A DNA stretch of 40,756 nt from a virus. This document shows positions 7,668 to 39,080 of this stretch, one piece after another. A model generated the notes under the pieces. That model ran no database searches. It worked only from the letters and a program-made list of their open reading frames with translations, and had not been told where the DNA came from. The stretch lies in the IMG/VR virus record IMGVR_UViG_3300029868_000025; one strand, given 5' to 3'. The translations under genes and the position numbers were made by a program. Numbering within the stretch: position 1 is the stretch's first letter; the number at the start of each line of letters is the position of its first letter.

Positions 7668-7676
7668 GGCTTTCTT

Positions 7677-8162
7677 ATGAATGTAAGTAATCATGCAAAC
7701 AGTATCGAGCATAAAGTCACATCTGAAAATAGTAGCATCTTACCAAATGTACTTTTAGCTAATGATTCGAGTAAAGAAGTTGTACATCTCACCAAAGCAG
7801 AAAGCCTGATACTTGAGCTTATTGCTCATTTTGGCTTTTCAGTACCAGAAGCAGCGGCGAGTTTACACAGAGCTATATCAACTGTCACGAAGCAGTCGAA
7901 TTCATTACAAAGGAAGTTAGGGGCTAAAAACATCGCTCATGCAATTTCACGCGCTTACCAGTTAAAAATTCTCGATCCATCCAAACCAGCAAGTGACGAA
8001 ACAATAAAGCGTATCGGCTCAAGTGTAATGATCGTTGTTGTTCTTATGACGCTTACATTCTTTCAAGACGCACGAGTTAGACCAGGAAAGCGGCAGCGCT
8101 CACAGGTGTCTATGCGCGTCAGGGCTAGAAACGAGCTGCTACCTACCGATTGGATTACATAG
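7677..8162 (+). CDS. LuxR/GerE-type HTH protein with C-terminal transmembrane segment
   Basis: LTKAESLILELIAHFGFSVPEAAASLHRAISTVTKQSNSLQRKLGAKN matches the GerE HTH. IGSSVMIVVVLMTLTFF is followed by an Arg-rich tail. Confidence 0.75.
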   Translation: MNVSNHANSIEHKVTSENSSILPNVLLANDSSKEVVHLTKAESLILELIAHFGFSVPEAAASLHRAISTVTKQSNSLQRKLGAKNIAHAISRAYQLKILDPSKPASDETIKRIGSSVMIVVVLMTLTFFQDARVRPGKRQRSQVSMRVRARNELLPTDWIT

Positions 8163-11020: not shown

Positions 11021-11180
11021 TCAGCAAATAGGCAAAGCTTCACTAGCCAAAGCATACGAATCAATTGAAGCCGGCAAGGGTGCGAGCGGCCAAATAATGG
11101 TGCGAAAGCAAAGCACGCGAAATTGGTCGAAACGAACGCGAATTATTTTAGTCCAGACAGTCAGAGAGGTTAGAGCATGA
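11013..11180 (+). CDS. Possible small protein (55 aa, TTG start)
   Basis: GAGAGG RBS 8 nt before TTG 11013. The stop forms an ATGA overlap with the next gene. Confidence 0.3.
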   Translation: MDNQQIGKASLAKAYESIEAGKGASGQIMVRKQSTRNWSKRTRIILVQTVREVRA

Positions 11181-11392
11181 GTCATAACAGCGAAACAGAA
11201 ACGCAAGCCAAGAAAATAGCTGAGCATTTGAAAGGCGGCAAAGGGTTAACGCCATTACAAGCGCTTGACCTCTTTGGCTGCTTTAGATTGAGCGCCAGAA
11301 TCGGAGAGCTAAAGGAAATAGGTATGAAAATTACATCCTCGCGAGTTAAGCGCGGCAAGAAAAGCGTCTGTGAATATACGTTGATTGCATAA
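11177..11392 (+). CDS. Small winged-helix/HTH protein (71 aa)
   Basis: LTPLQALDLFGCFRLSARIGELKEIGMKI pattern, typical of phage HTH_39-like proteins. Confidence 0.65.
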   Translation: MSHNSETETQAKKIAEHLKGGKGLTPLQALDLFGCFRLSARIGELKEIGMKITSSRVKRGKKSVCEYTLIA

Positions 11393-11532
11393 TGACGACT
11401 ATCGAACTGTTCGCCCTCATCCTAATAGCGTCAGTAGCAATGATGGTGCTAGGCGCTGGCATCTGTTACTCGGCCATATGGTATATGAATAGGGTTGATT
11501 GCGAGTTTATGGAGGGATTGGAAATTGACTAA
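11392..11532 (+). CDS. Small membrane protein (46 aa)
   Basis: Hand translation MTTIELFALILIASVAMMVLGAGICYSAIWYMNRVDCEFMEGLEID. TAATG overlap with the upstream gene. Confidence 0.45.
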   Translation: MTTIELFALILIASVAMMVLGAGICYSAIWYMNRVDCEFMEGLEID

Positions 11533-12052
11533 AGCAGCCTATGGTCGAGTGGCCAATATCAAAAAAGTACCTTCTCGCAGTGTTGCGGTGATAATGATTG
11601 AGGTGCCGGTTGAGAGTTATGTTGAGGCCGTTACGTCATTCGATGAAAAGGACGTATTAATCACTATTGCGCCCAAAGACTTAAACGGCGGTTATGGGGT
11701 TGTTGTTAGTGAGCCGGTGAGCGTAAAGCTTGATATTGGTAGCGATGATTGCGTGTCAGGCGCAACCGTTGCCAAGATGATCGAAGCGGCTAATCCTGAA
11801 ATGCTTGTCACTACGCAGAAGCCACGCGGCCTAAAGCTCTCCAATGTTGCCGCTATGTGGTGCAAGGATGAGCATTTTCAAAATTGGTTATCGTTGAAGC
11901 TGCTAACTCCTATTGACGAAAAGATGGCGACTAATTATGTCAGGAATTCCTGTCTTATAGAATCCCGCTCTGAGCTGGATAGCAACAAGCAAGCGGCGGC
12001 GTATTTTATCGAGCACATTCGCGATCCATACCAAAAAGCAATGCAAAGTTAA
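11525..12052 (+). CDS. Hypothetical nin-region protein (175 aa, TTG start)
   Basis: ORF 11495..12052. GGAGGG RBS 8 nt upstream of TTG 11525. Confidence 0.6.
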   Translation: MTKAAYGRVANIKKVPSRSVAVIMIEVPVESYVEAVTSFDEKDVLITIAPKDLNGGYGVVVSEPVSVKLDIGSDDCVSGATVAKMIEAANPEMLVTTQKPRGLKLSNVAAMWCKDEHFQNWLSLKLLTPIDEKMATNYVRNSCLIESRSELDSNKQAAAYFIEHIRDPYQKAMQS

Positions 12053-12104
12053 AATTAACCATCCTACACCTAGACGAATACCTACAAACCATCGGAGAAG
12101 CCGC

Positions 12105-12341
12105 ATGATCGCACAGCTAAAAACAATTGAAGAGTCAATAAAGACGGAGCAACTCAAGCTCGATCAATTGCTGGAAAAGAAAGGGGAGTATTACCTGTAT
12201 GTGTCGGCCTATTCAACGGTTAAAGAGGCGAACAAAGCAACGGCTGAAGCGGCAAAGGATGTGAGGTCTACGCTATTAACGCTTAAAGGTTTGCGAGCTG
12301 ACATCCTTGAAATGAAAGAGATGGTAAAGGAGGCGGCTTAA
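12105..12341 (+). CDS. Hypothetical coiled-coil protein (78 aa)
   Basis: ORF with a GGAGAAG RBS. Confidence 0.6.
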   Translation: MIAQLKTIEESIKTEQLKLDQLLEKKGEYYLYVSAYSTVKEANKATAEAAKDVRSTLLTLKGLRADILEMKEMVKEAA

Positions 12342-12748
12342 TGAAAACGATTGAATTAGCTGAGGCGGTAGCAGTCGAGACTAAAAATGCTCCCTGCAAT
12401 GGATGCGCTAAACAGGCCGAATGCGCAACGGGCAAAATGTGCGGTGATTTTGTGGTTTTCTTTAAAACCGGAAAGAAGATTGAAGCCCAAAGAGAGGCAT
12501 ATAAATCTCTTTATAATAGAACGTTTGATAGGGCCAAAATCAGGCCGTCTATCAAGCTGCTCGTTTGCGAGGTTGCAGAGAAATACAAAGGAAAATCAGA
12601 AGGTGAGCTGATTGAAATAGCAAACGCAATGCTTGAGTTCTTGCGAACCAGCGGCAAATCAGATGCTTGCGAACAAACCAGAGAGAACCAGTATAGGGAG
12701 CTGGTTAGATTGGTTGGGCTTAGCGTTTCGGTTGTGGAGGCCGCTTAG
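12341..12748 (+). CDS. Hypothetical protein with N-terminal Cys cluster (135 aa)
   Basis: ORF with start/stop overlap with its neighbours. Motif CNGCAKQAECATGKMC. Confidence 0.65.
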   Translation: MKTIELAEAVAVETKNAPCNGCAKQAECATGKMCGDFVVFFKTGKKIEAQREAYKSLYNRTFDRAKIRPSIKLLVCEVAEKYKGKSEGELIEIANAMLEFLRTSGKSDACEQTRENQYRELVRLVGLSVSVVEAA

Positions 12749-13320
12749 TGATTGCCAAGCGCAAGCCTAAGAAGTGCCGAATCTGTCCAGAGAAGTTTGT
12801 GCCGTGCCGTATGGGTCAATTCGCTTGCTCGGTTAAGTGCGCTATTGAGTGGAGCAATCGACAGTCAGAGAAGAAAAAGAAAGCCCAGCATCGAGCGGAT
12901 AAAGAGCGGATTAAAACAAGGGGCGCGTGGCTTAACGACTGTAAAAACGCTTGTAATGCTTACGTCAGAGAGCGCGACCATGATCAACCTTGCATTAGTT
13001 GCGACAAGCCGCCCAGCCCTCAAATATACGGCGGTCAATGGGACGCGGGGCATTATCGCTCGGTTGGTTCGGCGCCTCATATTAGGTTTGTTCTGAACAA
13101 CATCCATAAGCAGTGCGTTTATTGCAACAGAGATTTAGACGGCAATATTGTTGCTTATCGCCCCCGGTTAATCGAGCGCATAGGGTTGGCAACGGTTGAG
13201 GCAATCGAAGCGGATCAAGCCCCTAGAAAATACTCAATCGAAGAAATCAGAGCAATGACGGCGAATTTCAGAAAGCTAACGCGAGAATTAAAGAAAAGGC
13301 GTGAATATGATACAGCGTAA
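12748..13320 (+). CDS. ninG: NinG/Rap-family recombination endonuclease
   Basis: CRICPEKF...FACSVKC zinc motif, DAGHYRSVGSAPHIRF, NIHKQCVYCN, GN..AYRP. Confidence 0.85.
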   Translation: MIAKRKPKKCRICPEKFVPCRMGQFACSVKCAIEWSNRQSEKKKKAQHRADKERIKTRGAWLNDCKNACNAYVRERDHDQPCISCDKPPSPQIYGGQWDAGHYRSVGSAPHIRFVLNNIHKQCVYCNRDLDGNIVAYRPRLIERIGLATVEAIEADQAPRKYSIEEIRAMTANFRKLTRELKKRREYDTA

Positions 13321-13636
13321 TCAGCATTTTTTGCGGATATTGATCGATAGGGCTGGCGGCTCTTTGCTATTGGGCGTTAAAGAAATGGAAGACGCCAAGC
13401 GCGAAAAGGGCGCGATTAGTGTTGAGCGGTTGAGTAGCGGCGTGTTTCGTCTTGGTGTACTGACTGCTGACGGCACCACGATTGAGAAAGCGAGCTCTAT
13501 TGATGCTCAGATACAAGCGGAAATGAATAAAATTGATTGGCCAGAAGAGGGGCGCATTGATGCAATAGGGCAAAACGGAAACGATGGCGAGCATTATGGC
13601 GCCAAAACTGAAACGCAAATTGATTGGGTGAAATGA
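13307..13636 (+). CDS. Hypothetical protein (110 aa)
   Basis: ORF; ATG 13307 (GTG 13301 also possible). IDAIGQNGNDGEHY motif. Confidence 0.6.
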   Translation: MIQRNQHFLRILIDRAGGSLLLGVKEMEDAKREKGAISVERLSSGVFRLGVLTADGTTIEKASSIDAQIQAEMNKIDWPEEGRIDAIGQNGNDGEHYGAKTETQIDWVK

Positions 13637-13752
13637 TGAATAGTAATGCTGTTGGAATTGCTGCGATTGTTGTGGCTGGCGTATTGGGCGTATTTTTTGG
13701 TGGCGATCCAGATTTGATGGATGCAATAACTCACTGGCTAAAGAGCAAATAG
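13633..13752 (+). CDS. Small membrane protein (39 aa)
   Basis: Hand translation MMNSNAVGIAAIVVAGVLGVFFGGDPDLMDAITHWLKSK. ATGA overlap with the upstream stop. Confidence 0.45.
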   Translation: MMNSNAVGIAAIVVAGVLGVFFGGDPDLMDAITHWLKSK

Positions 13753-13754
13753 CC

Positions 13755-13928
13755 ATGCTAACCGAACGCGACCAGCTACGCCAAAAATTAGAAGAGGATA
13801 CGGCTAAATTTTTGGCGTGTGGTGGCGTGGTTGATCAGCGATTGATAACGGATTGGAAAGAAAAAGTAGAATTAAGCATTAGTGAAAGGCAAATCATAAA
13901 CGGCAAATACTACGCGCATGGGGTGTAA
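13755..13928 (+). CDS. Hypothetical small protein (57 aa)
   Basis: Hand translation MLTERDQLRQKLEEDTAKFLACGGVVDQRLITDWKEKVELSISERQIINGKYYAHGV. Confidence 0.45.
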   Translation: MLTERDQLRQKLEEDTAKFLACGGVVDQRLITDWKEKVELSISERQIINGKYYAHGV

Positions 13929-13931
13929 TCA

Positions 13932-14627
13932 GTGAATCTATCAGGACACGCACGAGAAGCATTAGAACGAGCCTATACATATGGGCATACATCGTTTGAA
14001 TCAGAAGCGTACACCAAAGGCGACAATGATATTGTTAGTGCTAGTAAGCGAGGCAGGATAATCCGCAACGCTGATGGCTCAATAGTCGTGCCTGATTTCG
14101 CCATGTGTACAGCATCCGAGACACGCAGAAGCCGAAGCGGCACCACCAACACAATCTGCACAGCCATCGAGGTAGGCAACCTATTAGCCGCGGCGGAATC
14201 AAAAAAACCGGCGTTGCACGTTGTATGGCTTAGGGCTGCTTATCACCCAATGGACAATAGCGGGGCGCGTGAAGCGTTTAAAGCGATCTTATTTGATGAG
14301 TGGAAGAATAAGCGAGCCAAGACACCTAGTAGAAAATTAGCCGGTCAAGTGGCGTCAATGCTAGATGATGCGTTTGATTGGGTTGGTTACTTTCTCCGGA
14401 CTGATAGCGAACTGTTCACGCCTAAAGACTTGTGCGCGAAAATGGCGGGTAATCCATATTATGGGCGCCTATGGAATGAATGCCCTAAAGCAATGAATTA
14501 TCAACGCGACATTAAGCCCGAATTGTTAGCGATGTTAAATATTTGCGCCGATATTGATAGAAAAGCGTTGCAGCCTGTATGGGATGTTTTGAGTAAATTG
14601 AAAGGTAATTTAAAAGAGTGCGCATAA
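13932..14627 (+). CDS. Hypothetical protein in the late-regulator (Q-like) position (231 aa, GTG start)
   Basis: Last gene before the late promoter/terminator pair and lysis genes. The function call is positional only. Confidence 0.55.
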   Translation: MNLSGHAREALERAYTYGHTSFESEAYTKGDNDIVSASKRGRIIRNADGSIVVPDFAMCTASETRRSRSGTTNTICTAIEVGNLLAAAESKKPALHVVWLRAAYHPMDNSGAREAFKAILFDEWKNKRAKTPSRKLAGQVASMLDDAFDWVGYFLRTDSELFTPKDLCAKMAGNPYYGRLWNECPKAMNYQRDIKPELLAMLNICADIDRKALQPVWDVLSKLKGNLKECA

Positions 14628-14631
14628 GGTG

Positions 14632-14671
14632 TTGACAAAATGACTCCCAAAAGGCATCATTTTGATATGTT
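14632..14671 (+). promoter_or_regulatory. Putative late promoter (PR'-like)
   Basis: TTGACA 14632..14637, 18-nt spacer, ATCATT 14656..14661, then the -10-like TGATATGTT at 14663..14671. Confidence 0.45.
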
Positions 14672-14704
14672 GGGATTTCTGCCTAACATCCAAAGTTTTT
14701 AAAG

Positions 14705-14743
14705 AAAGCCCCTTCATTGCGCACAGCTAAAGGGGCTTTTTTT
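14705..14743 (+). terminator. Strong rho-independent terminator (tR'-like)
   Basis: AAAGCCCCTT-loop-AAGGGGCTTT followed by a T-run, ~60 nt upstream of the endolysin gene. Confidence 0.85.
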
Positions 14744-14802
14744 ATGCCTTAATTTTCCCTCTCGATATAAATAACCAATAGCCAAGCTAAGGGTGCTTTT
14801 GT

Positions 14803-15177
14803 ATGCGCGAATACTTTACAGAATCAGAATTAGCCTGTCCTTGTTGCGGAATCAATAAAGTTAAACCGAGTTTTAGACGCCGATTAAATCAGTTGCGTCA
14901 TGCATTAGGTTTTCCATTGATACCGTCTAGCGCTTTTCGATGTAGACAGCATAACGAAGATGTTGGCGGAGGCGTTGATAGCGCCCATTTAGCGGGTAGA
15001 GGGATTGATTTTCCGATAGCAAGAGGGCGAGCTTTTAGAATGGTAGAAGAGGCCCAGAAGCTAGGCTTTACGGGTATCGGATTAAGGCAGAAAGGCGACA
15101 CAGACGAGCGGTTTATTCATCTTGACGATTTGTTGAATGAGCCACACCGACCACGACCCACTATTTGGACGTACTAA
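14803..15177 (+). CDS. Endolysin, peptidase M15 family (D-Ala-D-Ala carboxypeptidase-like fold)
   Basis: SAFRCRQHN, VDSAHLAGRGIDF and FIHLD zinc-ligand motifs (H, D, H). Confidence 0.85.
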   Translation: MREYFTESELACPCCGINKVKPSFRRRLNQLRHALGFPLIPSSAFRCRQHNEDVGGGVDSAHLAGRGIDFPIARGRAFRMVEEAQKLGFTGIGLRQKGDTDERFIHLDDLLNEPHRPRPTIWTY

Positions 15178-15178
15178 C

Positions 15179-15403
15179 ATGAATCCTTTATTAGCATTAG
15201 TAGGCCCAATAATTACCGGCTTAATGTCACTAAAAAGCGACCCTAAAGCCTTTGTTAAAGAAGTCAAAGAAACCCCAAAATCTACCATTACAGGCTTAGC
15301 CGGTATAGGTGCAACGATAGTATTAGCGCAAACACAAGAGGAAGCGATTCTAGCCATTATTGTCGGCTTATTGTCGCTTGCTTCGATCCTCTATAAAAAA
15401 TAA
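15179..15403 (+). CDS. Holin-like membrane protein (74 aa)
   Basis: MNPLLALVGPIITGLMSL and AILAIIVGLLSLASILYKK hydrophobic segments. Immediately follows the endolysin gene. Confidence 0.6.
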   Translation: MNPLLALVGPIITGLMSLKSDPKAFVKEVKETPKSTITGLAGIGATIVLAQTQEEAILAIIVGLLSLASILYKK

Positions 15404-15538
15404 ATGATTTTCGTTTGGCGCGCATTGTTCGCCATTTTAACGCTATCAATGGTTTGTTTCTCTGTGCCGGTGGCGCTTAATGTCTATTTGATATTTAAAG
15501 TAAGTAAATATTTATCAGAGGCCGAGCATGACAATTAA
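15404..15538 (+). CDS. Small membrane protein (44 aa)
   Basis: Hand translation MIFVWRALFAILTLSMVCFSVPVALNVYLIFKVSKYLSEAEHDN. ATG directly follows the upstream stop. Confidence 0.4.
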   Translation: MIFVWRALFAILTLSMVCFSVPVALNVYLIFKVSKYLSEAEHDN

Positions 15539-15785
15539 TCAGGATGATTTAGATAAATTTGCAGCGGCAATAGTTGGGCAAATTAACGCAAAAGCAGAGA
15601 AAGACGATAGCAGCCACAACGATGATCATAGTTTCATAGCCCTATTGCGCGAACGAGAAGAGCGTAAAAAGGCTATTTATGACAAAGTTTTTCAATCTGC
15701 AATCGGTTTATTTGTTATTGGCGGATTAAGCGCGATTGGTAAGTTAGTACTATTTTGGATAGAGAGCGTTGCAGGCGGTAAGTAA
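15528..15785 (+). CDS. Lysis-cassette protein with C-terminal TM segment (85 aa)
   Basis: ORF; SAIGLFVIGGLSAIGKLVLFWI hydrophobic segment. Confidence 0.55.
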   Translation: MTINQDDLDKFAAAIVGQINAKAEKDDSSHNDDHSFIALLREREERKKAIYDKVFQSAIGLFVIGGLSAIGKLVLFWIESVAGGK

Positions 15786-16063
15786 TGGTTCAAGCGGTAA
15801 AAAACATGATTTCCTTAGTTTGGCGCTACTTATTCGAGATTCTTATTTGGATAGATCAAGGCGCTAATGTAATTTTTTACCCATTGCTTAATATCGTATT
15901 TCACCCTGCTAAATTTGGCAGTGCTGATGAAACGCTATCAAGCGTGTTTGGCAAGTATAGCGATCAATGTATCTGGTGTTATCGAGTGTGCATTGTGCTT
16001 GATTTTGTTTTGGGTAAAAAGCACTGCAAAAAATCAATTGAAGAAGACGAGAGTGGGTTATAG
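15785..16063 (+). CDS. Hypothetical protein (92 aa)
   Basis: ORF with ATGA-type coupling. Motifs IDQGANV...SADETLSS...HCKKSIEEDE. Confidence 0.55.
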   Translation: MVQAVKNMISLVWRYLFEILIWIDQGANVIFYPLLNIVFHPAKFGSADETLSSVFGKYSDQCIWCYRVCIVLDFVLGKKHCKKSIEEDESGL

Positions 16064-16915
16064 ATGAGTGTCGGCGATAGAATTTATGAAACCACAAGCA
16101 CGACCGGCACGGGCGACCTAACGCTAGATGGCGCGGTTACAGATTTTAACCCATTTAGCGATCAGTTCCAGATAGACCAGACGGCACATTATTACATTCG
16201 AAGTGACGCTGGCTGGGAAAAAGGTATCGGGCATTTATCCGACGCGACAACTTTTGTCCGCGACTTTGTTTTTAGTAATTCGTTAGGAACAGCGGTTAAA
16301 ATTAGCCTTACCGGAACGAGTAACGTTTTTAATGAGGGCTCTGTTTCCGCTCCTTACGGCGGTGATTACTTCGAGCGCATGGAGACAAATAACCTTTTCC
16401 GTAGTGCTCATGTAACGTCTTGCATTTTGGGTGAAAAAACCGTGGAGGCGGATAAAGCTTATTTTATGCCTTACTTGCATGCATACGAGGGGAAGTCTGA
16501 CGCTTTAGCTTGTATCGTTAAAACTGTGGCGGGCACCTCATCCAACTATATCCATCTTGCTTTGTATGACCGAAACAAAGAGGGTATGCCTGGGAAAAGG
16601 CTATTGAGTGTTACTGACTTAGACCCGTCAACTCAAGGAATACAGCTCGGTACTTTTTCCCCGCAAAATATCCCTCTGGGGTGGTATTGGGTAGCGTTTT
16701 TGTCTGACGTTGCGGTAAAGCTTATTTGCAAATCGTATGTGAATACTTTGGATGACGGCTTAGGACTTGATGAGCTGTATGGCACGCAAGATAATGAACT
16801 ATTGATACCATTCTACAGCTCTAAAACTGAACTCCCCGACCCTGCGACACTAGCCTGGCTTGACGGTAAAAAAACAAACGCTCCAGATGTTTACATACGA
16901 GGCATAAAATCATGA
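16064..16915 (+). CDS. Tail-fibre-like protein (283 aa)
   Basis: N-terminal TSTTGTGDLTLDGAV motif is common in phage fibre proteins. It is followed by an assembly-factor-like gene. Confidence 0.6.
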   Translation: MSVGDRIYETTSTTGTGDLTLDGAVTDFNPFSDQFQIDQTAHYYIRSDAGWEKGIGHLSDATTFVRDFVFSNSLGTAVKISLTGTSNVFNEGSVSAPYGGDYFERMETNNLFRSAHVTSCILGEKTVEADKAYFMPYLHAYEGKSDALACIVKTVAGTSSNYIHLALYDRNKEGMPGKRLLSVTDLDPSTQGIQLGTFSPQNIPLGWYWVAFLSDVAVKLICKSYVNTLDDGLGLDELYGTQDNELLIPFYSSKTELPDPATLAWLDGKKTNAPDVYIRGIKS

Positions 16916-22805: not shown

Positions 22806-24277
22806 GTCGCAACATGTTCGATAAGCTTGTTGGCTACTTCTCGCCAACTAGAGCGCTTGCACGAGATCAGGCCCGCTACAGATCGGATATGCTAACAGCT
22901 AAAGACGGTTACGACGCTGCCGGAAAGGGTCGGCGCAATACTTGGGTTAGAGGCTCGGATTCTAGCGTGAATGTTGAAACAAGAGGCTCGCTTGTTGCCT
23001 TGCGTGGTCGCTCGCGTGAAATGGTGCGCAACAACCCATACGCAGCCAGAGCCATCGAGGCGAGGGTATCGAATGCAATTGGTGCCGGAATAGTTCCAGC
23101 GGCTAAGTGTGACAACCAAAAGCGCCAAGATAACGCTAATAAGCTAATGCGGGAATGGTTAAAGACTTGCGACGTTGATGGCGTGCATAACCTCTACGGC
23201 CTTCAAGCGCTAGCAATGGCGGCAGTATCCGAGAGTGGCGAAGCTGTTGTTATTAAGCAGACCGTCAATGATAGAAGTCTAGCAGTACCATTAAAAATCA
23301 AGCTCGTTGAAGGTGATCACATTGACCACACTAAAGACGGCGGCTTGACCGACGGCAGTAACGTAATACAAGGCGTTCAATTTTCTTCCGGTGGCGCTAA
23401 GTCTGGATTATGGCTTTACAAGAACCACCCAGGCGAAAGAGGTGCAACAACCTTAACCTCAAAGCTAACGCCAATTGATCAAGTTGCCCATATATTCGAA
23501 GCAAAGCGCCCAGGGCAAGTAAGAGGTATTCCCGCCGGCGCTTCCGCCTTTATGAAAATGAAGGGGCTCGATGATTTTCAAGACGCAAGAATTGAACAGC
23601 AAAAAATTTCAGCGTGTTTAGTTGGGATTATTACGGATAGCGAAAACCCCAATTCTAGAGGCGATGTTTTGCCGGATAGGCTGGAGCCTGGCATGTTTCC
23701 TCAGATTAGCGGAGGTAAGGATGTAAAATTTAATTCCCCTCCTTCCGTTTCTGGTCATGCCGAATTTGTCTCTACTGAGCTGCACGCGGTTGCAATGTCT
23801 TACGGTATCACATACGAAGCGCTTACGGGCGACCTTGGTGGCGTTAACTTCTCAAGCGGCAAAATGGGCTGGATAGAGTTCTCAAGAAATATACAGCGCT
23901 GGCGGTGGAACATGATTATCCCCCAGCTTTGCCACAAGGTAGGCGATTGGTTTATTGAGGCGGCAACTTTAGCGGGTCACGATATGAAAGGCGTCACTTT
24001 TGAATGGACGCCGCCCCGTAGAGAAATGATTGACGCCAACAAAGAAATACCAGCGCAATTAAAAGCGATCAGGGGAGGATTGAAGTCATGGTCTGAGACT
24101 GTTCGAGAAAACGGTTACCAGCCCGAGGCGCTTATTAAGGAGATGGTCGAGGATAATAAACGCTTCGATGATAATGGAATAATTTTAGATTCCGACTCAA
24201 GAAAAACGACTTCTGCCGGAAACCTTCAGATTGAAGATAATTACGAGGATGACGAAAATGAAAACAAGCCGGAATAG
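22802..24277 (+). CDS. Portal protein (lambda gpB family)
   Basis: RSREMVRNNPYAARAIE resembles lambda B ADDLVRNNGYAANAIQ. Size and position fit. Confidence 0.9.
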   Translation: MSRNMFDKLVGYFSPTRALARDQARYRSDMLTAKDGYDAAGKGRRNTWVRGSDSSVNVETRGSLVALRGRSREMVRNNPYAARAIEARVSNAIGAGIVPAAKCDNQKRQDNANKLMREWLKTCDVDGVHNLYGLQALAMAAVSESGEAVVIKQTVNDRSLAVPLKIKLVEGDHIDHTKDGGLTDGSNVIQGVQFSSGGAKSGLWLYKNHPGERGATTLTSKLTPIDQVAHIFEAKRPGQVRGIPAGASAFMKMKGLDDFQDARIEQQKISACLVGIITDSENPNSRGDVLPDRLEPGMFPQISGGKDVKFNSPPSVSGHAEFVSTELHAVAMSYGITYEALTGDLGGVNFSSGKMGWIEFSRNIQRWRWNMIIPQLCHKVGDWFIEAATLAGHDMKGVTFEWTPPRREMIDANKEIPAQLKAIRGGLKSWSETVRENGYQPEALIKEMVEDNKRFDDNGIILDSDSRKTTSAGNLQIEDNYEDDENENKPE

Positions 24278-26273
24278 CGTAGGCACAACCACAAGCCGAA
24301 ACAGCATTAGTGGCAGCGGTGAGCTTCTTCTCTACGGTGAGATTGGCGAGTATTGGGATGATTTAGACGCTGAATCCGTTGTTAGACAGCTTGAATATCT
24401 CAATAAAGATGAGCTAGCCGTTCGCATACACTCAGGCGGCGGATTGATTCTAGAAGGTTTGGCAATTTATAACGCGCTAAAGCGATCAGCGGCAAACATA
24501 ACGGTTTATATCGACGGCCTAGCAGCTTCGATGGCGTCCGTTGTGGCAATGGTAGGCGATAAGGTGATCATGCCTTCTAACGCCTGGCTAATGATTCACA
24601 AGCCGTGGAATTACGTAGGCGGCAACGCTGACGAAATGCGAAAGATGGCCGACAACTTAGACGGCTTTGAAGATAGCCTAGTTTTAATCTACAAAGCCAA
24701 GTGCAACCTATCCGAAGATGAAATCAAAGATATGTTGAGAAATGAAACCTGGATCAGCGCAAAGGATGCGTTAGAGATGGGTTTCATTGATGAGATTTCC
24801 GACGCAATAGAAGCTGCGGCCTCAATCGATCTAAATCAATTTAGCAACGTTCCCGATGATATGCGTAAAAGCTTGTCATCAACACCAAAAGCGGCCCAGC
24901 CCGTTAATTTAAACCCAAAGGAAATACCCACTATGACACCTGAAGAAATAGCAGCGGCTGAAGCAAAAGCAATGGCCGCACAAGCAAAATCAGATGAAGC
25001 AGCAAAGGCGCTAGCTACTGAGGCAGTAGCCAAAGAGCGACAACGAGCGGCTTCCATTCGTGAAATTGGCGGCCAAGCAAAGTTAGACGCCGATGCTGTA
25101 AATAACATGATCGATCGCGGCATTTCAATCGATGCGGCTCGCGGTGAAGCACTGGAAGCTGTAGCAAAGCGAGACGCTGCATTTGTGCCTAGCTCTCACA
25201 TTCGCGTAGAGACTGACACCACAGCAATCAAGGCAAGCATGACTAATGCTATCTTGAATCGCGCGGCCCCTTCAAAGAATAAGCTCGACGAAGGCGGCGC
25301 AGACTTCCGAGGCGCTTCGCTTCTCGATATGGCCAAGGCAATGATTGAGTGCGGCGGCGGTAGTATTCGAGGTATGTCACCGAATGAAGTTGCAGCAAAG
25401 GCAATGCATTCAACTAGCGACTTTCCAGCGATCCTGGCTGATGTTGCTAACAAGTCTCTATCTCAAGGCTACGAGGCAGCGCCAAAGACGTTTATGCCTT
25501 TCTGTCGCCAAACTTCAGCCTCGGACTTCAAAGCCGTTAACCGCGCCAAGCTAGGCGAAGCGCCAGAGCTTGAAAAAGTGAACGAAAAGGGCGAATTCAA
25601 GTACGGCACCATGGGAGAAGCGAACGAAGCTTATCAGCTAGAAACGTTCGGTAAAATCATGTCCTTAACCCGTCAAACGCTCATCAATGATGATCTTGAT
25701 GCGTTCACACGTATTCCTCAAGCTTTCGGCGCTTCTGCTGCTGAGCTTGAAAATACAACCGTTTGGGGATTGATTACCGGCACTAAGGTTATGTCTGATG
25801 CCAAGGTGTTATTCCATACAGGGCATAAAAACTTAGGTACAGCGGGCGCTCTTAGCGAAACCACACTAAGCGAAGCGCGTAAGAAGTTACGCAGACAAAC
25901 AGGAATCAACTCTACTCGCCCGCTTAACTTGATGGCTGAGTTTTTGATTGTTCCGGCGTCACTAGAAACAGTAGCGCAAAAGCTACTTACTGCAATTGTT
26001 GCTAACGCTTCTAACGACGTTAACCCATTCGCCAACACTTTCACAATCATTGTCGAGCCTCGCCTTGATGATGATAGTGAGACTTCTTGGTATTTGGCCT
26101 CATCTCCTAACCGTATCGATACCATCGAGTATGCATACTTGACCGGCGAAGAGGGCGTTTATATCGAAACCGAGCAAGGCTTTGATGTAGATGGAATCAA
26201 GATTAAGGCGCGCTTAGACTTTGGTGCTGGCGTTATTGATTGGCGCGGCTTGTTCAAGAACGCTGGCCAGTAA
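24258..26273 (+). CDS. Prohead protease (ClpP/S14-like) / major capsid protein fusion
   Basis: N-terminal IHSGGG...GLAASMASVV...MIHKPW ClpP motifs, an Ala/Lys-rich linker, and a C-terminal ~400-aa capsid-like region. ATG 24258 follows a GAGGA RBS. Confidence 0.85.
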   Translation: MKTSRNSVGTTTSRNSISGSGELLLYGEIGEYWDDLDAESVVRQLEYLNKDELAVRIHSGGGLILEGLAIYNALKRSAANITVYIDGLAASMASVVAMVGDKVIMPSNAWLMIHKPWNYVGGNADEMRKMADNLDGFEDSLVLIYKAKCNLSEDEIKDMLRNETWISAKDALEMGFIDEISDAIEAAASIDLNQFSNVPDDMRKSLSSTPKAAQPVNLNPKEIPTMTPEEIAAAEAKAMAAQAKSDEAAKALATEAVAKERQRAASIREIGGQAKLDADAVNNMIDRGISIDAARGEALEAVAKRDAAFVPSSHIRVETDTTAIKASMTNAILNRAAPSKNKLDEGGADFRGASLLDMAKAMIECGGGSIRGMSPNEVAAKAMHSTSDFPAILADVANKSLSQGYEAAPKTFMPFCRQTSASDFKAVNRAKLGEAPELEKVNEKGEFKYGTMGEANEAYQLETFGKIMSLTRQTLINDDLDAFTRIPQAFGASAAELENTTVWGLITGTKVMSDAKVLFHTGHKNLGTAGALSETTLSEARKKLRRQTGINSTRPLNLMAEFLIVPASLETVAQKLLTAIVANASNDVNPFANTFTIIVEPRLDDDSETSWYLASSPNRIDTIEYAYLTGEEGVYIETEQGFDVDGIKIKARLDFGAGVIDWRGLFKNAGQ

Positions 26274-34132: not shown

Positions 34133-35083
34133 ATGACAGGTTATACAGGCATAACAACGGCCCAGATAGATACTGATAGCCCAATTGTAGAGGCGACATT
34201 AACAGCTTTGCGGGATGATCCTCTTGCAATGTTCGAAGGGGCGGCGGGTGCGCCTAGGTTGCAGACTGCGGCTATGGATAGTGCAATTGTAACGCTCGAT
34301 AAGATGGCGGCTAATTCCGTTGATCAATCACAGGTAGTGGCGGGAGCTATTCACCAGGCAGAATTAAGCACTTCAACCGGCTCTGTTTCTGTAGCGTTGG
34401 GGGCGGCTCAGGATTTGATTTTACCTGGCGGGTCATATGGGTTTTTTCCGCAAGCGGAGGCGGTGGGCAGCACTGGTGGCTTTATTTTCGCAATGAGAAT
34501 GCTAGAAAGCTCCCCGTTACTGGCGGCAGATGGCCAAGTGACAGCCATTCAATTAGAGCAAGTGTCCGGTCACGCCTCAATAACACTCCACGCTCACCAA
34601 CGATATATAAACTCATCACCACCCTATAACCTAGGAGATGGTGATATACCGCTGTTTCACTTCGGCTTGCTGCGCGATGGCGTTATTGTTGCAACGTATA
34701 CGGCAGACGTTCCGCCATGGGGATACAATGGTCCTACCAGCGTTAGAGCTGACGCAACCAACAGGCAGGGAAAGAAATTCAGGCGCAAGCGCACAATAGA
34801 CAAAAGGCGCGGCAAAGTGGTTACCGAAATGGAAGAAATAACCCACACAATCAAAAACGCCGACATGGGGTTAATTCCCCACCCATTCCTAAGCAAAAAG
34901 GAAGGCGACGAAGTAATTCTATTAAATCCACCAGAAACCAGCGATCTTCTTGATATGCACGAGGCAGGCGAATCGATAGCGCAGTTATTCAAGGATGATT
35001 ATTTGAGGCTAGATAATGCTGACTTAGCCAGGGCAACACCGAGCGGCGTTAAGGCATGTCGATATAGATGGAAGAGTACTTAA
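34133..35083 (+). CDS. Tail-associated protein (316 aa)
   Basis: Last gene of the tail module. N-terminal ITTAQIDTDSPIVEATLTALRDDPLAMFEG motif is common in fibre-like proteins. Confidence 0.55.
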   Translation: MTGYTGITTAQIDTDSPIVEATLTALRDDPLAMFEGAAGAPRLQTAAMDSAIVTLDKMAANSVDQSQVVAGAIHQAELSTSTGSVSVALGAAQDLILPGGSYGFFPQAEAVGSTGGFIFAMRMLESSPLLAADGQVTAIQLEQVSGHASITLHAHQRYINSSPPYNLGDGDIPLFHFGLLRDGVIVATYTADVPPWGYNGPTSVRADATNRQGKKFRRKRTIDKRRGKVVTEMEEITHTIKNADMGLIPHPFLSKKEGDEVILLNPPETSDLLDMHEAGESIAQLFKDDYLRLDNADLARATPSGVKACRYRWKST

Positions 35084-35535
35084 CCTTTGCACCAGTTTTT
35101 ACGCTTCCCCCCGTGGTATGGCCTAGCCTGGCCTTTTTCGATCAAGTAAGCGGCTAGATTGTGCCCGTCAACGTAGACATCGGCTAGCAGTCTAAAATAC
35201 TTCCCTCGCTTAATATTCCTTAGCTCCAGTTCCTTTGTTTGCCTCAATGCGCCAACTGTAAATTGTTTAGCCTTTTGTGCCATTCGTCGTTCGCGACTTT
35301 TGGCGTCTGCGGTCTTGCACTTGCTTTTCATCTCCGGCGCATCAATCCCGTTTATCCTTACGCTAATTCGCTCACCAGCAACGGCAGGCCAGCCAGGAAC
35401 TGTTATGGTGAACGTGTCTGCGTCATAGATGCTTGTCACGGCACTAGATGGTAATTTAAGGTTACCGTATGATTTGGCCGCGAAAGACTGTGAGCAGGCA
35501 AGGAGGGCGCATAAGGTTAGGGTTAATCTAATCAT
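35080..35535 (-). CDS. Secreted or lipoprotein thermonuclease (staphylococcal nuclease/SNase family)
   Basis: Signal MIRLTLTLCALLAC. Motifs YDADTF, RINGIDAPE and GKYFRLLADVY correspond to SNase Ca/catalytic motifs. Confidence 0.85.
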   Translation of the reverse strand: MIRLTLTLCALLACSQSFAAKSYGNLKLPSSAVTSIYDADTFTITVPGWPAVAGERISVRINGIDAPEMKSKCKTADAKSRERRMAQKAKQFTVGALRQTKELELRNIKRGKYFRLLADVYVDGHNLAAYLIEKGQARPYHGGKRKNWCKG

Positions 35536-35939
35536 TGGGCTGGCTCAGCGCTTTCTATCGACTTCTTGACTGACATAGGGTTATCTATCGACTTAAATAA
35601 CATTCCGCTAATGCCTGTGCCCGTCACCTCGACGTCTCCATAACCCAGCATCCTACCCAATATACCTTGCTTAATCTCCACGGTTTCAACTGATGTTAAT
35701 TTAACCTCTTCAGTTTTTCGTGAAATTATCCCTGTTTTATAAATAACGCGCTTATTAGTTACGCCTTGCTCTATCGCTTTAAGAGACAAGTAGGCATAGA
35801 CGGCAAATATTAAAGTTATTCCCAAGGTGAGAGGGGCCAAGATTATACAAAGCACCATGACTATATAGGCCGTCCAATGGTGTTTGAATTTCTCGTATAT
35901 TATCTCGCCCTTAGAAAGCGACTCTTCAATGTAGGCCAT
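35532..35939 (-). CDS. Membrane protein with bacterial PH domain (bPH_2/YdbS-like)
   Basis: Two TM helices followed by VTNKRVIYKTG...VEIKQGILGRMLGYGDVEV...IDNP. ATGA coupling to the nuclease gene. Confidence 0.75.
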   Translation of the reverse strand: MAYIEESLSKGEIIYEKFKHHWTAYIVMVLCIILAPLTLGITLIFAVYAYLSLKAIEQGVTNKRVIYKTGIISRKTEEVKLTSVETVEIKQGILGRMLGYGDVEVTGTGISGMLFKSIDNPMSVKKSIESAEPAQ

Positions 35940-36031
35940 CGTTTATTATCCTTAATCTGATTGTGGAATGTGGATATTAGGCTAAGGACAAAATAGAGTC
36001 AATTTTGCTTACTATGGATGGGGGCTGGTCA

Positions 36032-36544
36032 CTACTCGCAGTCTTTTGCCACCTTCGTGCAAATCCCCTCACCTAGTATCATTATCCGCTCAATTATACT
36101 GTCCAAATTAGTGTATAAATCAATCAGCGTTTTTTCGCTGTGCTTGTCGTGATCTCCGTTGCTTACACCTTCTATATCCTCAATCGCAGCGTTCAACAGT
36201 CCGTAGAATTCAACAATCTCGCCTGCTAGGCCATACTCCAGTACACCAAGTTTTTGTATGTTTGCGTCGTATGCTTTCGAGTAAGACCGCCTTACATGGG
36301 CGCTAAAGGATGCGGTGGAACTATCTCGCTTAAGGTTTGCTATGTGCGACTGTATGTGTTGCTGGTATTGCCTCTTTTTTATCAGCTTGCAGACCATGCC
36401 GATTTCACCGGAAATTACGACGGCAATACTTCTGGCTTCAAGAGTTTTTTTGCGATTGTCCAGTATATAGGTTGCCCCAACTGAGCTACAAAAAGCGATA
36501 AGTCCGCCCACGATAGTTCCTAATAGTGCCGACATTTTCCACAT
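36032..36544 (-). CDS. Membrane-anchored hypothetical protein (170 aa)
   Basis: N-terminal TM ALLGTIVGGLIAFCSSVGATYIL followed by a helical soluble domain. First gene of the cassette next to attP. Confidence 0.6.
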   Translation of the reverse strand: MWKMSALLGTIVGGLIAFCSSVGATYILDNRKKTLEARSIAVVISGEIGMVCKLIKKRQYQQHIQSHIANLKRDSSTASFSAHVRRSYSKAYDANIQKLGVLEYGLAGEIVEFYGLLNAAIEDIEGVSNGDHDKHSEKTLIDLYTNLDSIIERIMILGEGICTKVAKDCE

Positions 36545-36643: not shown

Positions 36644-36693
36644 TTACAATGGGGTTGTAGGGGTCGAAGGTTCAAATCCTTTCGCCCCGACCA
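36644..36693 (+). other. attP core: 3' 50 nt of a tRNA-Pro gene (anticodon arm to CCA), not a complete tRNA
   Basis: TTACA-ATGGGGT-TGTAG anticodon arm (GGG, G37), GGGTC, GAAGG-TTCAAAT-CCTTT T-arm, CGCCCCG-A-CCA. No matching 5' acceptor or D-arm upstream. Confidence 0.75.
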
Positions 36694-36698
36694 ATTGA

Positions 36699-36714
36699 CG
36701 CGGGTTGCAGTGTT
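36699..36714 (+). repeat. Direct repeat CGCGGGTTGCAGTGTT (copy 1; candidate Int arm-type site)
   Basis: Recurs with a 1-nt deletion at 36851..36865. Confidence 0.7.
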
Positions 36715-36724
36715 AAGGGATACT

Positions 36725-36749
36725 AACCGCACACAAACCGCACACAAAC
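36725..36749 (+). repeat. Tandem 11-bp repeat (AACCGCACACA)x2 plus AAC
   Basis: Read directly; one helical turn period, within the attP arm. Confidence 0.85.
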
Positions 36750-36808: not shown

Positions 36809-36832
36809 AAAAAAAAGGGGCTGAAGAGCCCC
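36809..36832 (-). terminator. Rho-independent terminator, minus strand only
   Basis: GGGGCT-cttc-AGCCCC followed by TTTTTTTT on the minus strand. Confidence 0.7.
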
Positions 36833-36850
36833 TTCCCCCATTGAGTTTTC

Positions 36851-36865
36851 CGCGGGTTGCGTGTT
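36851..36865 (+). repeat. Direct repeat CGCGGGTTGCGTGTT (copy 2)
   Basis: Matches 36699..36714 apart from a one-base indel. Confidence 0.7.
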
Positions 36866-36948
36866 CAATGTATTGTTGATGGAGATGGCGCTTATAATTT
36901 ATGTAGCGTCACAATTGGTTTTCGCTATTCGGAAACAGGACTTGGGAT

Positions 36949-37830
36949 TTGACTACAACGATATTTAGGAAGCGGCACAAAAAGCCTGCAGTAATGGCCT
37001 CTGACACCCGGGTAAGCTACCTGAACAGCAACGGAAAGATAGCAAAATGGGACGATGTCGATGAGTTCTTGAAGTGCGTTGATATTGGCGGGGTTTTGTA
37101 CGGATTTGCTGGAACCAATATAATATTCGCTGAATTTTTGAAAGAGTATGATCTAATAATTAATAGATCTGATTTTTGGCTTGATTCACTTGTTGAATTT
37201 GCTAAACATATTGGGGTTCAGTTTTACATTATGCGATATGACGGGAGTTTGCAGTTGTTTGCATATTCTCGCGCTGATCCAGGAAGCGATCAGCCAGAGA
37301 TCAAGAGGACATCCAGAGATCAAGCTGTTAACAGTAAGACTTTTGCTATTGGGTCTGGCCGATTCTCCAAAATGTATAAGGAGAATAAGGGCAAGGGAGG
37401 GGCGCAGCTGCCAATTCGCAGGATAGTTGGTGCCAATCTCAAAGCGATAGCACGTTGTAACCTTAAAGATGTGGTAAAAAAAGCTAAAAATGCTACTCTG
37501 AATGATAAGGAATCCGAAAAAATAGCTTTTGCGTGCTACGAGGAGGGTGGGGATTTACCCACTGGTGGCAAGATTAATATGACTACTAAACAGAGTGATA
37601 TTCAAATGGAAAGAGAGCTTGTGGGTGAGCAGGTTAAACTCCTGGAGGGGTTGGAAGATGCAGCCTCATCGAATGATTTACGTTGCGCTAGCCCGTTTGA
37701 CGCCGCTGAAGAGGCCGCGCGCCTTAACAGTATGGGGCAAGTAGTATGCAGTGATTATACTCCAGAGCAAACGGACGAGTTTATTGCGCTACAACAGAAG
37801 TTAGCGAAGTCAGTTGGTCGGTATTTCTAA
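36949..37830 (+). CDS. HslV/proteasome-beta-like Ntn threonine peptidase with ~80-aa C-terminal extension
   Basis: TTG start with an AGGA RBS 8 nt upstream gives M-TTTIF. Motifs AVMASDTRVS, YGFAGT, FAIGSG and GGDLPTGGKINM parallel HslV TTIV, IAGDGQAT, GFAGG, AIGSGG and the proteasome D..SGG. Confidence 0.7.
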   Translation: MTTTIFRKRHKKPAVMASDTRVSYLNSNGKIAKWDDVDEFLKCVDIGGVLYGFAGTNIIFAEFLKEYDLIINRSDFWLDSLVEFAKHIGVQFYIMRYDGSLQLFAYSRADPGSDQPEIKRTSRDQAVNSKTFAIGSGRFSKMYKENKGKGGAQLPIRRIVGANLKAIARCNLKDVVKKAKNATLNDKESEKIAFACYEEGGDLPTGGKINMTTKQSDIQMERELVGEQVKLLEGLEDAASSNDLRCASPFDAAEEAARLNSMGQVVCSDYTPEQTDEFIALQQKLAKSVGRYF

Positions 37831-37842
37831 TGCTGTTAGGTA

Positions 37843-37882
37843 AATACAGCCCCTAGCTAGACAGTAGTCTAAAGGCTGTATT
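37843..37882. terminator. Hairpin between convergent peptidase and int genes
   Basis: AATACAGCC...GGCTGTATT stem with an inner AGAC-agta-GTCT stem. Confidence 0.4.
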
Positions 37883-37892
37883 CATGATTTTA

Positions 37893-39080
37893 TCAAAAAC
37901 TCCCCCCAAGCACTTTCTCCGATATCGTCATATCAATATCAGTCCATTGTATTTCATGCCCTGCCTGGTAATGCTCCGTCATTTCAGCATCGGTGTGCGC
38001 CATTAATTCCTGCACTCGCCCAATATCATAACCAGCCTTTCCATAAAGGTGGCTACCCAGTGCGCGTATCTCGTGGAAGGTCGGTTTTTGGCGTTTCTCT
38101 AATCCAGAAAATAGGCCGGTAGCGTCTCTGGCCTCAACAAAGGCATCAGAAAATATGCGGGGCAATACTTGGCAATGGTGGGTCTTTTTACCCATTACCC
38201 TTTTTTGCGGCAGCCGGTTGATGACGTAAGGGCAGCGGTAATGCTTCAATGATAGCTCTCGCGCTCTCGCTATGAGTTCGCGTAACATTGGGTTATCGCT
38301 CAAATCCCATCGCAGGTTGGCCCCTTCGCCATTTTCGGCCTTTTCGTGGCTTTTAGAAATACCCTTACATAATTGATCGTTGACTATGTGCCGGTCAAAT
38401 TTAAGGTAAACAATATCGCCTCTCCGCATGGTGGTAAGTAGGCTGATCCCCATTCCTATCTGTAAGTAATCTAAACCGAGCTCGCCAGCTTTCTCGTAAA
38501 TTTTCCAAAAGCTCTCTTTGTCGAGTCGCTGTCTTTCCTTTTTAGGTAGTGGCTTCATTAGTACGCGAGGGCGATCATCGGCAGTGGTGAATGGGTTGCC
38601 TTTAAGTAGAGGCACAACATCCTTAGACATTAGCCAGTTAAAAAATTTATTGAATTCAGAGCGTCTTGAGCGCTGAGCGTATCCGGTTAAGTGGTCCCAC
38701 CAATTTTGTATAGAGATAAGGTCTAGGTGGCTAATTGGGGTGGTGGTAAATTCGGTGGCAAACTGCCGCAAATAGCCTCCGCGAGTCTTCCATGATTCCT
38801 TAGCTTGTAGCGATGGGTCGAGCTTTTCTCTATAAGCCTCGTAATCAAGAGCGTATTTAATCACCGAATCTCTTCGTGGGGGAGGGGCTTTCATCATCCC
38901 CTTTTCTTTATTGGTGGCGTTCGCAACCTCCACGGCATCCTCTAGGGTTGCGTGAAAAATCTTCTCTGTGCCGTCTCGCCTCTTGTAGCGCCAATAATTT
39001 ATTCGCCCTTTGGGGTCTTTATATAGGTTGTCAGGCAATAGAATGCCGTCCACAAACCTAGGCTTCTTAGGTCGTGCCAT
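37893..39080 (-). CDS. int: Tyrosine integrase (lambda Int-like)
   Basis: FHEIRALGSHLYGKAGY...VQELMAHTDAEMTEHYQAGH parallels lambda THELRSLSARLY...LLGHKSDTMASQYR. Confidence 0.95.
   Translation of the reverse strand: MARPKKPRFVDGILLPDNLYKDPKGRINYWRYKRRDGTEKIFHATLEDAVEVANATNKEKGMMKAPPPRRDSVIKYALDYEAYREKLDPSLQAKESWKTRGGYLRQFATEFTTTPISHLDLISIQNWWDHLTGYAQRSRRSEFNKFFNWLMSKDVVPLLKGNPFTTADDRPRVLMKPLPKKERQRLDKESFWKIYEKAGELGLDYLQIGMGISLLTTMRRGDIVYLKFDRHIVNDQLCKGISKSHEKAENGEGANLRWDLSDNPMLRELIARARELSLKHYRCPYVINRLPQKRVMGKKTHHCQVLPRIFSDAFVEARDATGLFSGLEKRQKPTFHEIRALGSHLYGKAGYDIGRVQELMAHTDAEMTEHYQAGHEIQWTDIDMTISEKVLGGSF

Follow-up and report, generated by a model that had tools for sequence, protein, structure and literature searches.

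What kind of protein is encoded by the lone gene that lies beside the integrase of a temperate marine phage, and what might it do for its carrier? We examined this question in a 40,756-nucleotide stretch of viral DNA, IMG/VR record IMGVR_UViG_3300029868_000025 (the window, by which we mean the whole stretch), where the gene occupies positions 36949..37830 on the plus strand. An initial annotation, made from the letters and a list of open reading frames (ORFs), had described the product as an orphan threonine peptidase resembling HslV and proteasome beta subunits, with a C-terminal extension, and had placed its gene in a moron (cargo) slot. The analyses presented here indicate that the 293-amino-acid protein is, with high probability, a proteasome-like N-terminal nucleophile (Ntn) hydrolase. 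Judged from its conserved residues and its model, it would be a self-contained threonine hydrolase of the proteasome beta/HslV fold. Its role is discussed below at a lower level of confidence.

The first line of evidence is the predicted fold. AlphaFold2 gave a usable model only from an alignment of 34 family sequences, with a predicted local distance difference test score (pLDDT) of 95.7 and a predicted template modelling score (pTM) of 0.92; with 6 sequences the pLDDT was 41. The order of elements in the model is that of a proteasome beta subunit, with four N-terminal strands, two helices (residues 57-65 and 67-88), four strands, helices and a final strand, as in the alpha-beta-beta-alpha sandwich order S1-S4, H1, H2, S5-S8, H3, H4, S9-S10. 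Foldseek returned 56 matches in the PDB at E ≤ 1e-3 (best 1.5e-5). Of these 56, the best 50 (E up to 7.7e-4) consist of 20S proteasome subunits, almost exclusively of beta type, together with Anbu and HslV, the last including 3ty6 and 6kr1. Among viral predicted structures (BFVD), the matches are phage proteins, one of which is named ‘proteasome subunit beta’. Two observations weigh against the assignment. The template modelling scores (TM-scores) reported by Foldseek are modest (0.30-0.35 by query and 0.36-0.48 by target), and no hidden Markov model library matches the protein. Modest scores would be expected of a distant member whose model contains some 120 extra residues, and the absence of library matches marks the protein as a distant member of the family.

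Comparison of the family alignment with an alignment of HslV using hhalign gave colinear similarity from residue 1, with a probability of 84% (P 7.7e-6) in local mode and 87% (P 4.6e-7) in global mode. As controls, the best of 30 column-shuffled HslV profiles reached P 0.011 and the reversed profile P 0.14. An HslV alignment was needed for this result, as the comparison with a single HslV sequence was weak (P 0.0097), and the HslV profile is itself shallow, the homologue search having given only sequences at least 86% identical. When an insertion between H3 and H4 (residues 150-184) was removed, the alignment continued past H4 and reached the GD..TGG motif, with a probability of 90% and P 1.4e-6. 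The likeness to HslV and proteasome beta subunits that had been noticed earlier is thus borne out by the fold and by hhalign, with the refinement that two of the motifs look nearer to 20S beta subunits than to HslV, as discussed below.

Members of this class use as nucleophile the threonine (or serine) that stands first in the mature chain. The frame begins with TTG at 36949 and ends with TAA at 37828-37830; its translation begins MTTTIFRKRHKKPAVMASDTRVS, with the N-terminus MTTTIFRK. An in-frame TAG (36904-36906) closes the frame upstream, and there is no other start codon before 36949. A Shine-Dalgarno-like AGGA (36937..36940, plus strand) lies 8 nt before the TTG, as originally read from the sequence; it is not conserved in the family. 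Across 15 distinct loci, the start codon (TTG in 12, GTG in 2 and ATG in 1) is in all 15 cases followed directly by three threonine codons (ACN), whose third positions vary although the residues are fixed; in the window these are Thr2-Thr3-Thr4 (36952..36960), invariant wherever the true start is included. The loci of this family-wide survey include the window (36949) and L001, L002, L010, L011, L013-L015, L017, L021, L023 and L027. Most loci have an in-frame stop codon 3-51 nt upstream and no alternative start, and every correctly called family protein begins with MTTT. TTG is a strikingly conserved weak initiator in this family; likewise, E. coli hslV has a start codon other than ATG, namely GTG.

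Because the start codon is mostly TTG, gene callers often begin family genes at an internal methionine, losing the catalytic threonine. Where cluster representatives had been called in this way, other cluster members or the DNA show the MTTT start. Several database entries of the family are truncated through such calls. For the window, we rejected a start at ATG 36994, since the 15 codons upstream of it are conserved at the protein level and the frame is closed upstream in most loci. Methionine aminopeptidase would remove the initiator methionine and expose Thr2 as the N-terminal nucleophile. The threonine N-terminus that had been proposed from one sequence is therefore a property of the family, with methionine removal as its predicted step.

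All five catalytic motifs named in the initial annotation occur in the protein, and their key positions show little or no variation. In the 34 sequences, the residues that are invariant or at least 97% conserved comprise T2, T3, T4, F6, D19, R21, K42, Y51-G-F-A-G55 and N57 in the N-terminal half, and I134-G-S-G137, P155, I159, N163, C196, G200, D202, T205-G-G207, Q228, E255, L259 and G263 in the later part. Asp19-Thr20-Arg21 (37003..37011) is the counterpart of Asp17 and Arg19 in proteasome beta subunits; conservation is at least 97% for both D19 and R21, and D19 pairs with HslV Asp17 in hhalign. The invariant Gly52-Phe-Ala-Gly55 (37102..37113), the oxyanion-hole Gly47 motif, pairs with HslV GFAG. 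Ile134-Gly-Ser136-Gly137 (37348..37359), the Ser129 motif, pairs with HslV AIGSG; here I134, G135 and G137 are invariant and S136 is at least 97% conserved. Gly200-Gly-Asp202-Leu-Pro-Thr205-Gly-Gly207 (37546..37569), the Asp166/Ser169/Gly170 motif, pairs with HslV AGD..YT once the insertion is removed, and its residues G200, D202, T205, G206 and G207 are invariant.

For the partner lysine of Thr1, the alignment and the conservation pattern disagree. In hhalign, HslV Lys33 falls opposite Lys33 of the query, which is not conserved, so that the lysine register is off by one hairpin. Lys42 (37072..37074) is invariant in the family and in the model stands directly before strand 43-46, which hairpins into the GFAG strand 49-56. 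Lys33 occupies this same place in proteasome subunits. On the basis of conservation and predicted topology, and not of hhalign, Lys42 is probably the Lys33 equivalent. The residue correspondences proposed earlier thus hold by alignment for Asp17, GFAG, GSG and the D..T-GG motif, and in the case of the lysine by this topological argument.

We searched for further relatives of the protein in sequence libraries. Single-protein searches of Pfam, PHROGs, PADLOC, NCBIfam and PDB sequences gave no match, and family-profile searches of sequence libraries gave none either, including none to PDB proteasome sequences. Neither the protein nor 19 family members matched any Pfam model, PF00227 (Proteasome) included, at E ≤ 10. 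Weak PDB hits to kinases and a phenol hydroxylase (E 0.28-1.5) were dismissed as chance. Blastn and tblastn searches of GenBank phages and PLSDB plasmids found nothing, and a tblastn search of phage records with HslV recovered only genuine host HslV fragments. An exhaustive HMMER search of 1.84 billion clusters at 50% identity yielded only 26 family representatives with the conserved N-terminus and catalytic residues, which shows that the ORF is not a chance one; this search gave no link to a larger group. The 5.8-billion set contained 25 clusters at 90% identity. One hit of the family search, P0031, a 1263-aa repeat protein (E 9e-4), was treated as spurious, its repeats matching the C-terminal helices. 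Two family members carry the JGI name ‘HslVU peptidase subunit’. The named carriers are all aquatic Gammaproteobacteria, namely Aliamphritea, Pseudoalteromonas, Catenovulum, Shewanella, Vibrio, Aliivibrio, Plesiomonas and Aeromonas.

Two elements are added to the core. The first is a basic helical insertion between H3 and H4 (residues 147-185; 37387..37503), which contains model helices 153-169 and 173-181, has an isoelectric point (pI) of 11.2 with 10 K/R against 1 D/E, and includes the conserved P155, I159 and N163. It has no HslV counterpart, as indicated by the extension of the hhalign alignment after its removal. The second is the acidic helical C-terminal extension that had been recognized at the outset (residues 213-293; 37585..37827). 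It is predicted with high pLDDT to form helices 218-241, 252-261 and 276-290, has a pI of 4.4 compared with 9.4 for the core, and is conserved, with Q228, E255 and G263 invariant and L259 nearly so. These C-terminal 81 residues have no match in any library searched and no counterpart in HslV. Both elements are likely to be specificity or regulation modules.

Beta rings stack at the very place of H3-H4 insertions, and such insertions could keep double rings from forming (PMC8665760). As an alternative to a peptidase, the protein might be a transpeptidase or ligase with sequence specificity, or an amidase whose substrate is not a protein, with Thr1 chemistry as in other Ntn hydrolases and in connectase, a monomeric proteasome homologue. 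The model of the monomer is very confident and compact, its extra elements being packed against the core, and the position of the insertion is expected to disfavour double rings (PMC8665760), both of which would suit such an enzyme; connectase shows that the proteasome fold can evolve ligase activity (PMC7980362). Connectase itself is archaeal, lacks H1 and H2 and has a two-helix insertion between S3 and S4, whereas the phage protein keeps H1 and H2, carries its insertion between H3 and H4, and occurs in bacteria and phages. Connectase is also absent among the Foldseek matches listed, and no conserved neighbour gene could serve as substrate. We consider a ligase or amidase improbable, and return to the reading of the protein as a threonine peptidase.

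As a peptidase, it may be compared with HslV (ClpQ, the peptidase of HslVU, MEROPS T1B). Both start with Met-Thr-Thr and have no propeptide, and the alignment is colinear over Thr1, Asp17, GFAG, AIGSG and GD..T. Unlike HslV, a compact protein of 176 aa (about 175 aa is typical of HslV proper), the phage protein has 293 aa, shares about 20% identity with it, matches no NCBIfam model, and carries the basic insertion and the acidic C-terminal domain. HslV proper is a housekeeping protein encoded with HslU; the present gene is phage-borne, without an adjoining hslU in the window or in the related loci. We therefore do not place it in HslV proper. The resemblance does raise the alternative of a host-takeover or counter-defence protease, which would serve the phage itself. 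It would dock on host HslU or another housekeeping AAA+ protein and so redirect ATP-dependent proteolysis, or would directly degrade a defence or regulatory protein of the host in the course of infection or induction. The HslV-like start without a propeptide, the colinear similarity and the lack of an AAA+ partner of its own are in its favour, and such orphans possibly use housekeeping factors (PMC8665760). However, the similarity to HslV is very low, and the surfaces through which HslV stacks its rings are altered here by the H3-H4 insertion and by the C-terminal domain of 80 residues. We take up this alternative again with the genomic context.

The best structural matches are instead to 20S beta subunits and Anbu. 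Like the mature 20S beta chain, the phage protein would start with Thr-Thr-Thr; Asp17-x-Arg19 of the former resembles D19-T-R21, and Asp166-x-x-Ser/Thr169-Gly-Gly resembles D202-L-P-T205-G-G. The family motifs (A/S)D(S/T)RV(S/T) and GD-x-x-T-G-G look nearer to 20S beta subunits than to HslV, which agrees with beta subunits heading the Foldseek list. Unlike 20S beta subunits and Anbu, the protein has no propeptide and no alpha-subunit partner, is encoded by a mobile single gene, is missed by the Pfam Proteasome model, and contains the additional insertion and C-terminal domain.

The nearest described relatives are found in the bioinformatic catalogue of Fuchs, Alva and Lupas (2021), which lists 22 new proteasome homologues (PMC8665760). 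No AAA+ partner, informative genomic context or function was found for the catalogued homologues (PMC8665760). Among them, PPH comprises proteins of about 140 aa in Caudovirales and their hosts, RPC is related to PPH, has a C-terminal extension that matches no known structure, and consists of 79 sequences from Proteobacteria only, and DPH comprises 37 sequences, found in few Proteobacteria (PMC8665760). PPH and RPC are described as lacking helix H2, and RPC and DPH are not listed as occurring in phages (PMC8665760). Our protein resembles PPH and RPC in being a Group I, beta-like, proteobacterial protein without propeptide or AAA+ partner. PPH is likewise phage-borne, and RPC shares the proteobacterial range and an extra C-terminal domain of no known fold. 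It differs from PPH in length (293 aa against about 140 aa) and from both in that its model keeps H1 (57-65) and H2 (67-88) before strand 92-97. The comparison with these clusters is by description, and representatives of RPC (WP_140207863), DPH (WP_074989469.1) and GPH (WP_152342571.1) are absent from the family accessions listed. The family is either part of the RPC or the DPH cluster or a further cluster, and its kind, an orphan proteasome homologue on mobile elements, is already known. The new elements are a confident structural model, a fixed TTG-Thr3 start and the repeated occurrence of the gene in cargo and defence hotspots of phages. It had been stated earlier that no phage function built on such a peptidase was described; the literature that we searched contains no link of a proteasome-like or HslV-like protein to phage defence, anti-defence or conversion, and a 2026 preprint on P2/P4 hotspots mentions neither the proteasome nor HslV, although phage-borne homologues as such had been catalogued in 2021 (PMC8665760).

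The gene content of the window is that of a lambda-like, temperate, marine phage. It includes a CI-type repressor, a replication protein O and a DnaB helicase, and also a gpA-type terminase, a lambda-family portal and a fusion of a ClpP-type protease to the major capsid protein (Pfam). Between a cargo block on the minus strand (35080-36544) and the tyrosine integrase (37893..39080, minus strand; Pfam Phage_integrase, 1e-08), the peptidase gene stands alone on the plus strand, convergent with the integrase. To the left of the peptidase gene lie the 3' 45 nt of a tRNA-Pro(GGG) gene (36649..36693, plus strand), which align to positions 33-77 of E. coli proL, the 3' CCA included. As had been anticipated, this fragment has the same orientation as the peptidase gene and ends 255 bp upstream of it. 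ARAGORN found no complete tRNA in the window. The fragment is the probable attP core. The uninterrupted order of tail genes, tRNA-Pro site, peptidase gene and int occurs in three independent metagenome assemblies, which identifies the window as the unintegrated (attP) form of a temperate phage.

A dedicated unfoldase is not evident in this phage. Pfam detected no AAA+ unfoldase among its 20 larger ORFs, which include all of at least 316 aa, and the only ring ATPase among them is the DnaB-type replicative helicase, in line with the initial annotation. The protein would act without a dedicated unfoldase, as a specific peptidase and not as a bulk degradation chamber. A role as prohead protease was rejected, as the phage has its ClpP-capsid fusion and filamentous phages also carry the gene. 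The fusion is a single 680-aa ORF (24231-26273, plus strand), with the protease, noted previously as a separate ClpP-type domain, in residues 40-190 and the major capsid domain in residues 385-677.

We examined the upstream region for expression signals. A TATAAT, a -10-like hexamer, is present at 36893..36898 (plus strand), 50 nt upstream of the start, as previously reported; a promoter consensus scan found no -35 partner for it. The sequence TGTATAAT occurs 35-50 nt upstream of the start in four related loci, which supports the view that the cassette brings its own promoter. Low constitutive production in the lysogen, from this promoter and the weak TTG start, may be envisaged.

The loci of the relatives differ widely. 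Only the peptidase gene is similar at the DNA level between the window and an Aliamphritea prophage, in which it lies at the prophage end between a DUF2971 protein and HicAB. It directly follows a P4-type integrase in one locus (L016), and in a Vibrio alginolyticus element it is 1.4 kb from the integrase. In three filamentous phages (L014, L015 and L025) it stands after zot and before a divergent regulator, in a Mu-like phage (L017) after GemA, and in a P2-like prophage of Plesiomonas immediately downstream of gpD. A P2 remnant of Aeromonas veronii has the gene between gpA and an ogr/portal fragment; the gpA-gpQ interval is a defence hotspot of P2 (PMC9122126), and the location in the remnant is that hotspot. 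On a Vibrionaceae chromosome the gene adjoins a TIR protein of the candidate system PDC-S35. In Pseudoalteromonas its neighbour is a patatin gene, and what lies upstream is an integrase in one case and a filamentous phage in another; this context is ambiguous, because gene and patatin are shared synteny. We rejected patatin as a partner, since its presence is a matter of chromosomal synteny common to two related loci and PADLOC gives no match for it, and a conserved partner gene in general, since the neighbours differ in every lineage. No AAA+ unfoldase adjoins the gene in any related locus examined. These loci show that the gene is a one-gene cassette moving between unrelated temperate phages. 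Its cargo positions in them strengthen the earlier view of a moron slot, and the integrase-adjacent and defence neighbourhoods are recurrent.

Some of these loci hold additional genes of interest. In the filamentous phage L014, a 327-aa ORF (6726-7709) with a partial match to C-5 cytosine DNA methylase lies between zot and the peptidase gene, and is a second cargo gene in the post-zot slot. In the Plesiomonas shigelloides P2-like prophage (L021), the region downstream of the peptidase gene (9464-16870) is a dense defence island at the prophage end. The next gene encodes a 330-aa protein without a match, followed by a complete Gabija system, GajA and GajB (PADLOC E 1e-268 and 1e-230), and further downstream by an HNH protein that matches the candidate system PDC-M36A and by a SLATT_5 protein.

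Given this context, the role that we rank first is protection against competing phages by proteolysis, a reading by analogy that we hold to be possible but somewhat short of probable. Upon superinfection, the enzyme would cleave a phage or host protein and so protect the lysogen and its prophage from competing phages. Gabija, the PDC-S35 TIR candidate and HicAB as cargo neighbours favour defence. A precedent for the role is Lit of e14, a single-protease prophage exclusion gene whose product cleaves EF-Tu. Both are single prophage-borne genes with their own expression signals in a cargo position beside att/int; Lit, however, is a zinc metalloprotease of unrelated fold, and the analogy is one of role only. 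A more specific proposal, which we put forward with greater reserve, is that the stand-alone proteasome-fold threonine peptidase by itself constitutes an anti-phage system, acting by superinfection exclusion or abortive infection. It would be the first defence built on Ntn/proteasome chemistry, spreading as a single gene between lambda-like, P2-like, Mu-like and filamentous temperate phages of aquatic Gammaproteobacteria.

Several points tell against a defensive role. PADLOC-DB 2.0 does not recognize the protein (no match at E ≤ 1), so that it is not among the known anti-phage systems of that library, and its promoter consists of a -10-like hexamer only. Temperate phages also keep genes for anti-defence, virulence and regulation in such cargo slots, as with the toxin in the post-zot slot of CTXphi. 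Furthermore, the Mu-like position between early and late genes suggests expression in the lytic cycle rather than in the lysogen.

Some of the same points would suit the takeover or counter-defence protease introduced above: the place of the Mu-like copy between mor/GemA and the late genes suggests lytic expression, and accessory regions also accumulate anti-defence genes. Yet the neighbours are defence systems, not known anti-defence genes, and a promoter-like element of its own and a weak start beside att/int fit lysogen expression better. Taken with the low similarity to HslV, this makes a takeover protease unlikely in our view.

The post-zot copies point to a further alternative, lysogenic conversion, in which the protein would affect a eukaryotic host or bacterial physiology (virulence, biofilm or stress proteolysis) and have no part in phage-phage conflict. 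CTXphi uses the post-zot slot for its toxin genes ctxAB, and the hosts of the family include Vibrio cholerae, V. vulnificus, Aeromonas and Plesiomonas. The protein, however, has no signal peptide, and none could be added since Thr1 must directly follow the methionine; it is hence cytoplasmic. Many carriers are free-living marine bacteria (Pseudoalteromonas, Catenovulum, Aliamphritea), and known defence genes recur as neighbours. We regard conversion as the least likely of the roles considered and quite doubtful, and retain protection against competing phages as the preferred, if tentative, reading.

Additional features surround the gene in the window. The three-gene minus-strand block between the tail-fibre genes and attP resembles a second cargo (moron) module. 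The gene at 35080-35535 encodes a protein of the staphylococcal nuclease type whose N-terminus is signal-like, the one at 35532-35939 a bacterial PH-domain protein (bPH_2), and the one at 36032-36544 a protein of 170 aa that begins with a hydrophobic segment. To the right of the tRNA-Pro core are an exact 10-nt direct repeat, CGCGGGTTGC, at 36699-36708 and 36851-36860 (copies 152 nt apart), and a tandem pair ACnAACCGCAC at 36722-36743; both are candidate arm-type binding sites of the integrase. A GC-rich hairpin followed by U8 is encoded on the minus strand between attP and the peptidase gene (36812..36833; -17.3 kcal/mol), with an A-run before it on the plus strand. No minus-strand gene ends there, int having a hairpin of its own. 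The hairpin might terminate antisense transcripts or read-through from int ahead of attP or, in the lysogen, act on transcripts that read through from tRNA-Pro. The int hairpin (37843..37883) lies between the convergent stop codons of the peptidase gene and int, with a folding energy of -22.9 kcal/mol (z -5.2) on the minus strand and -17.8 kcal/mol on the plus strand.

Apart from HslV, the 20S proteasome and connectase, we know of no orphan bacterial or phage proteasome homologue with a known function. Unlike the members of the 2021 catalogue, the family described here has a context: it occupies accessory and defence hotspots in temperate elements of five kinds, and lies there repeatedly beside defence systems. 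This context turns the function of orphan proteasome homologues into a directly testable question on one 0.9-kb gene. If the protein protects against phages, threonine-protease chemistry would join the defence repertoire, in the form of a small proteasome-like enzyme without a partner, in which the basic insertion and the acidic tail could be dissected as specificity elements. If it serves the phage instead, it would represent a new way to manipulate host proteolysis.

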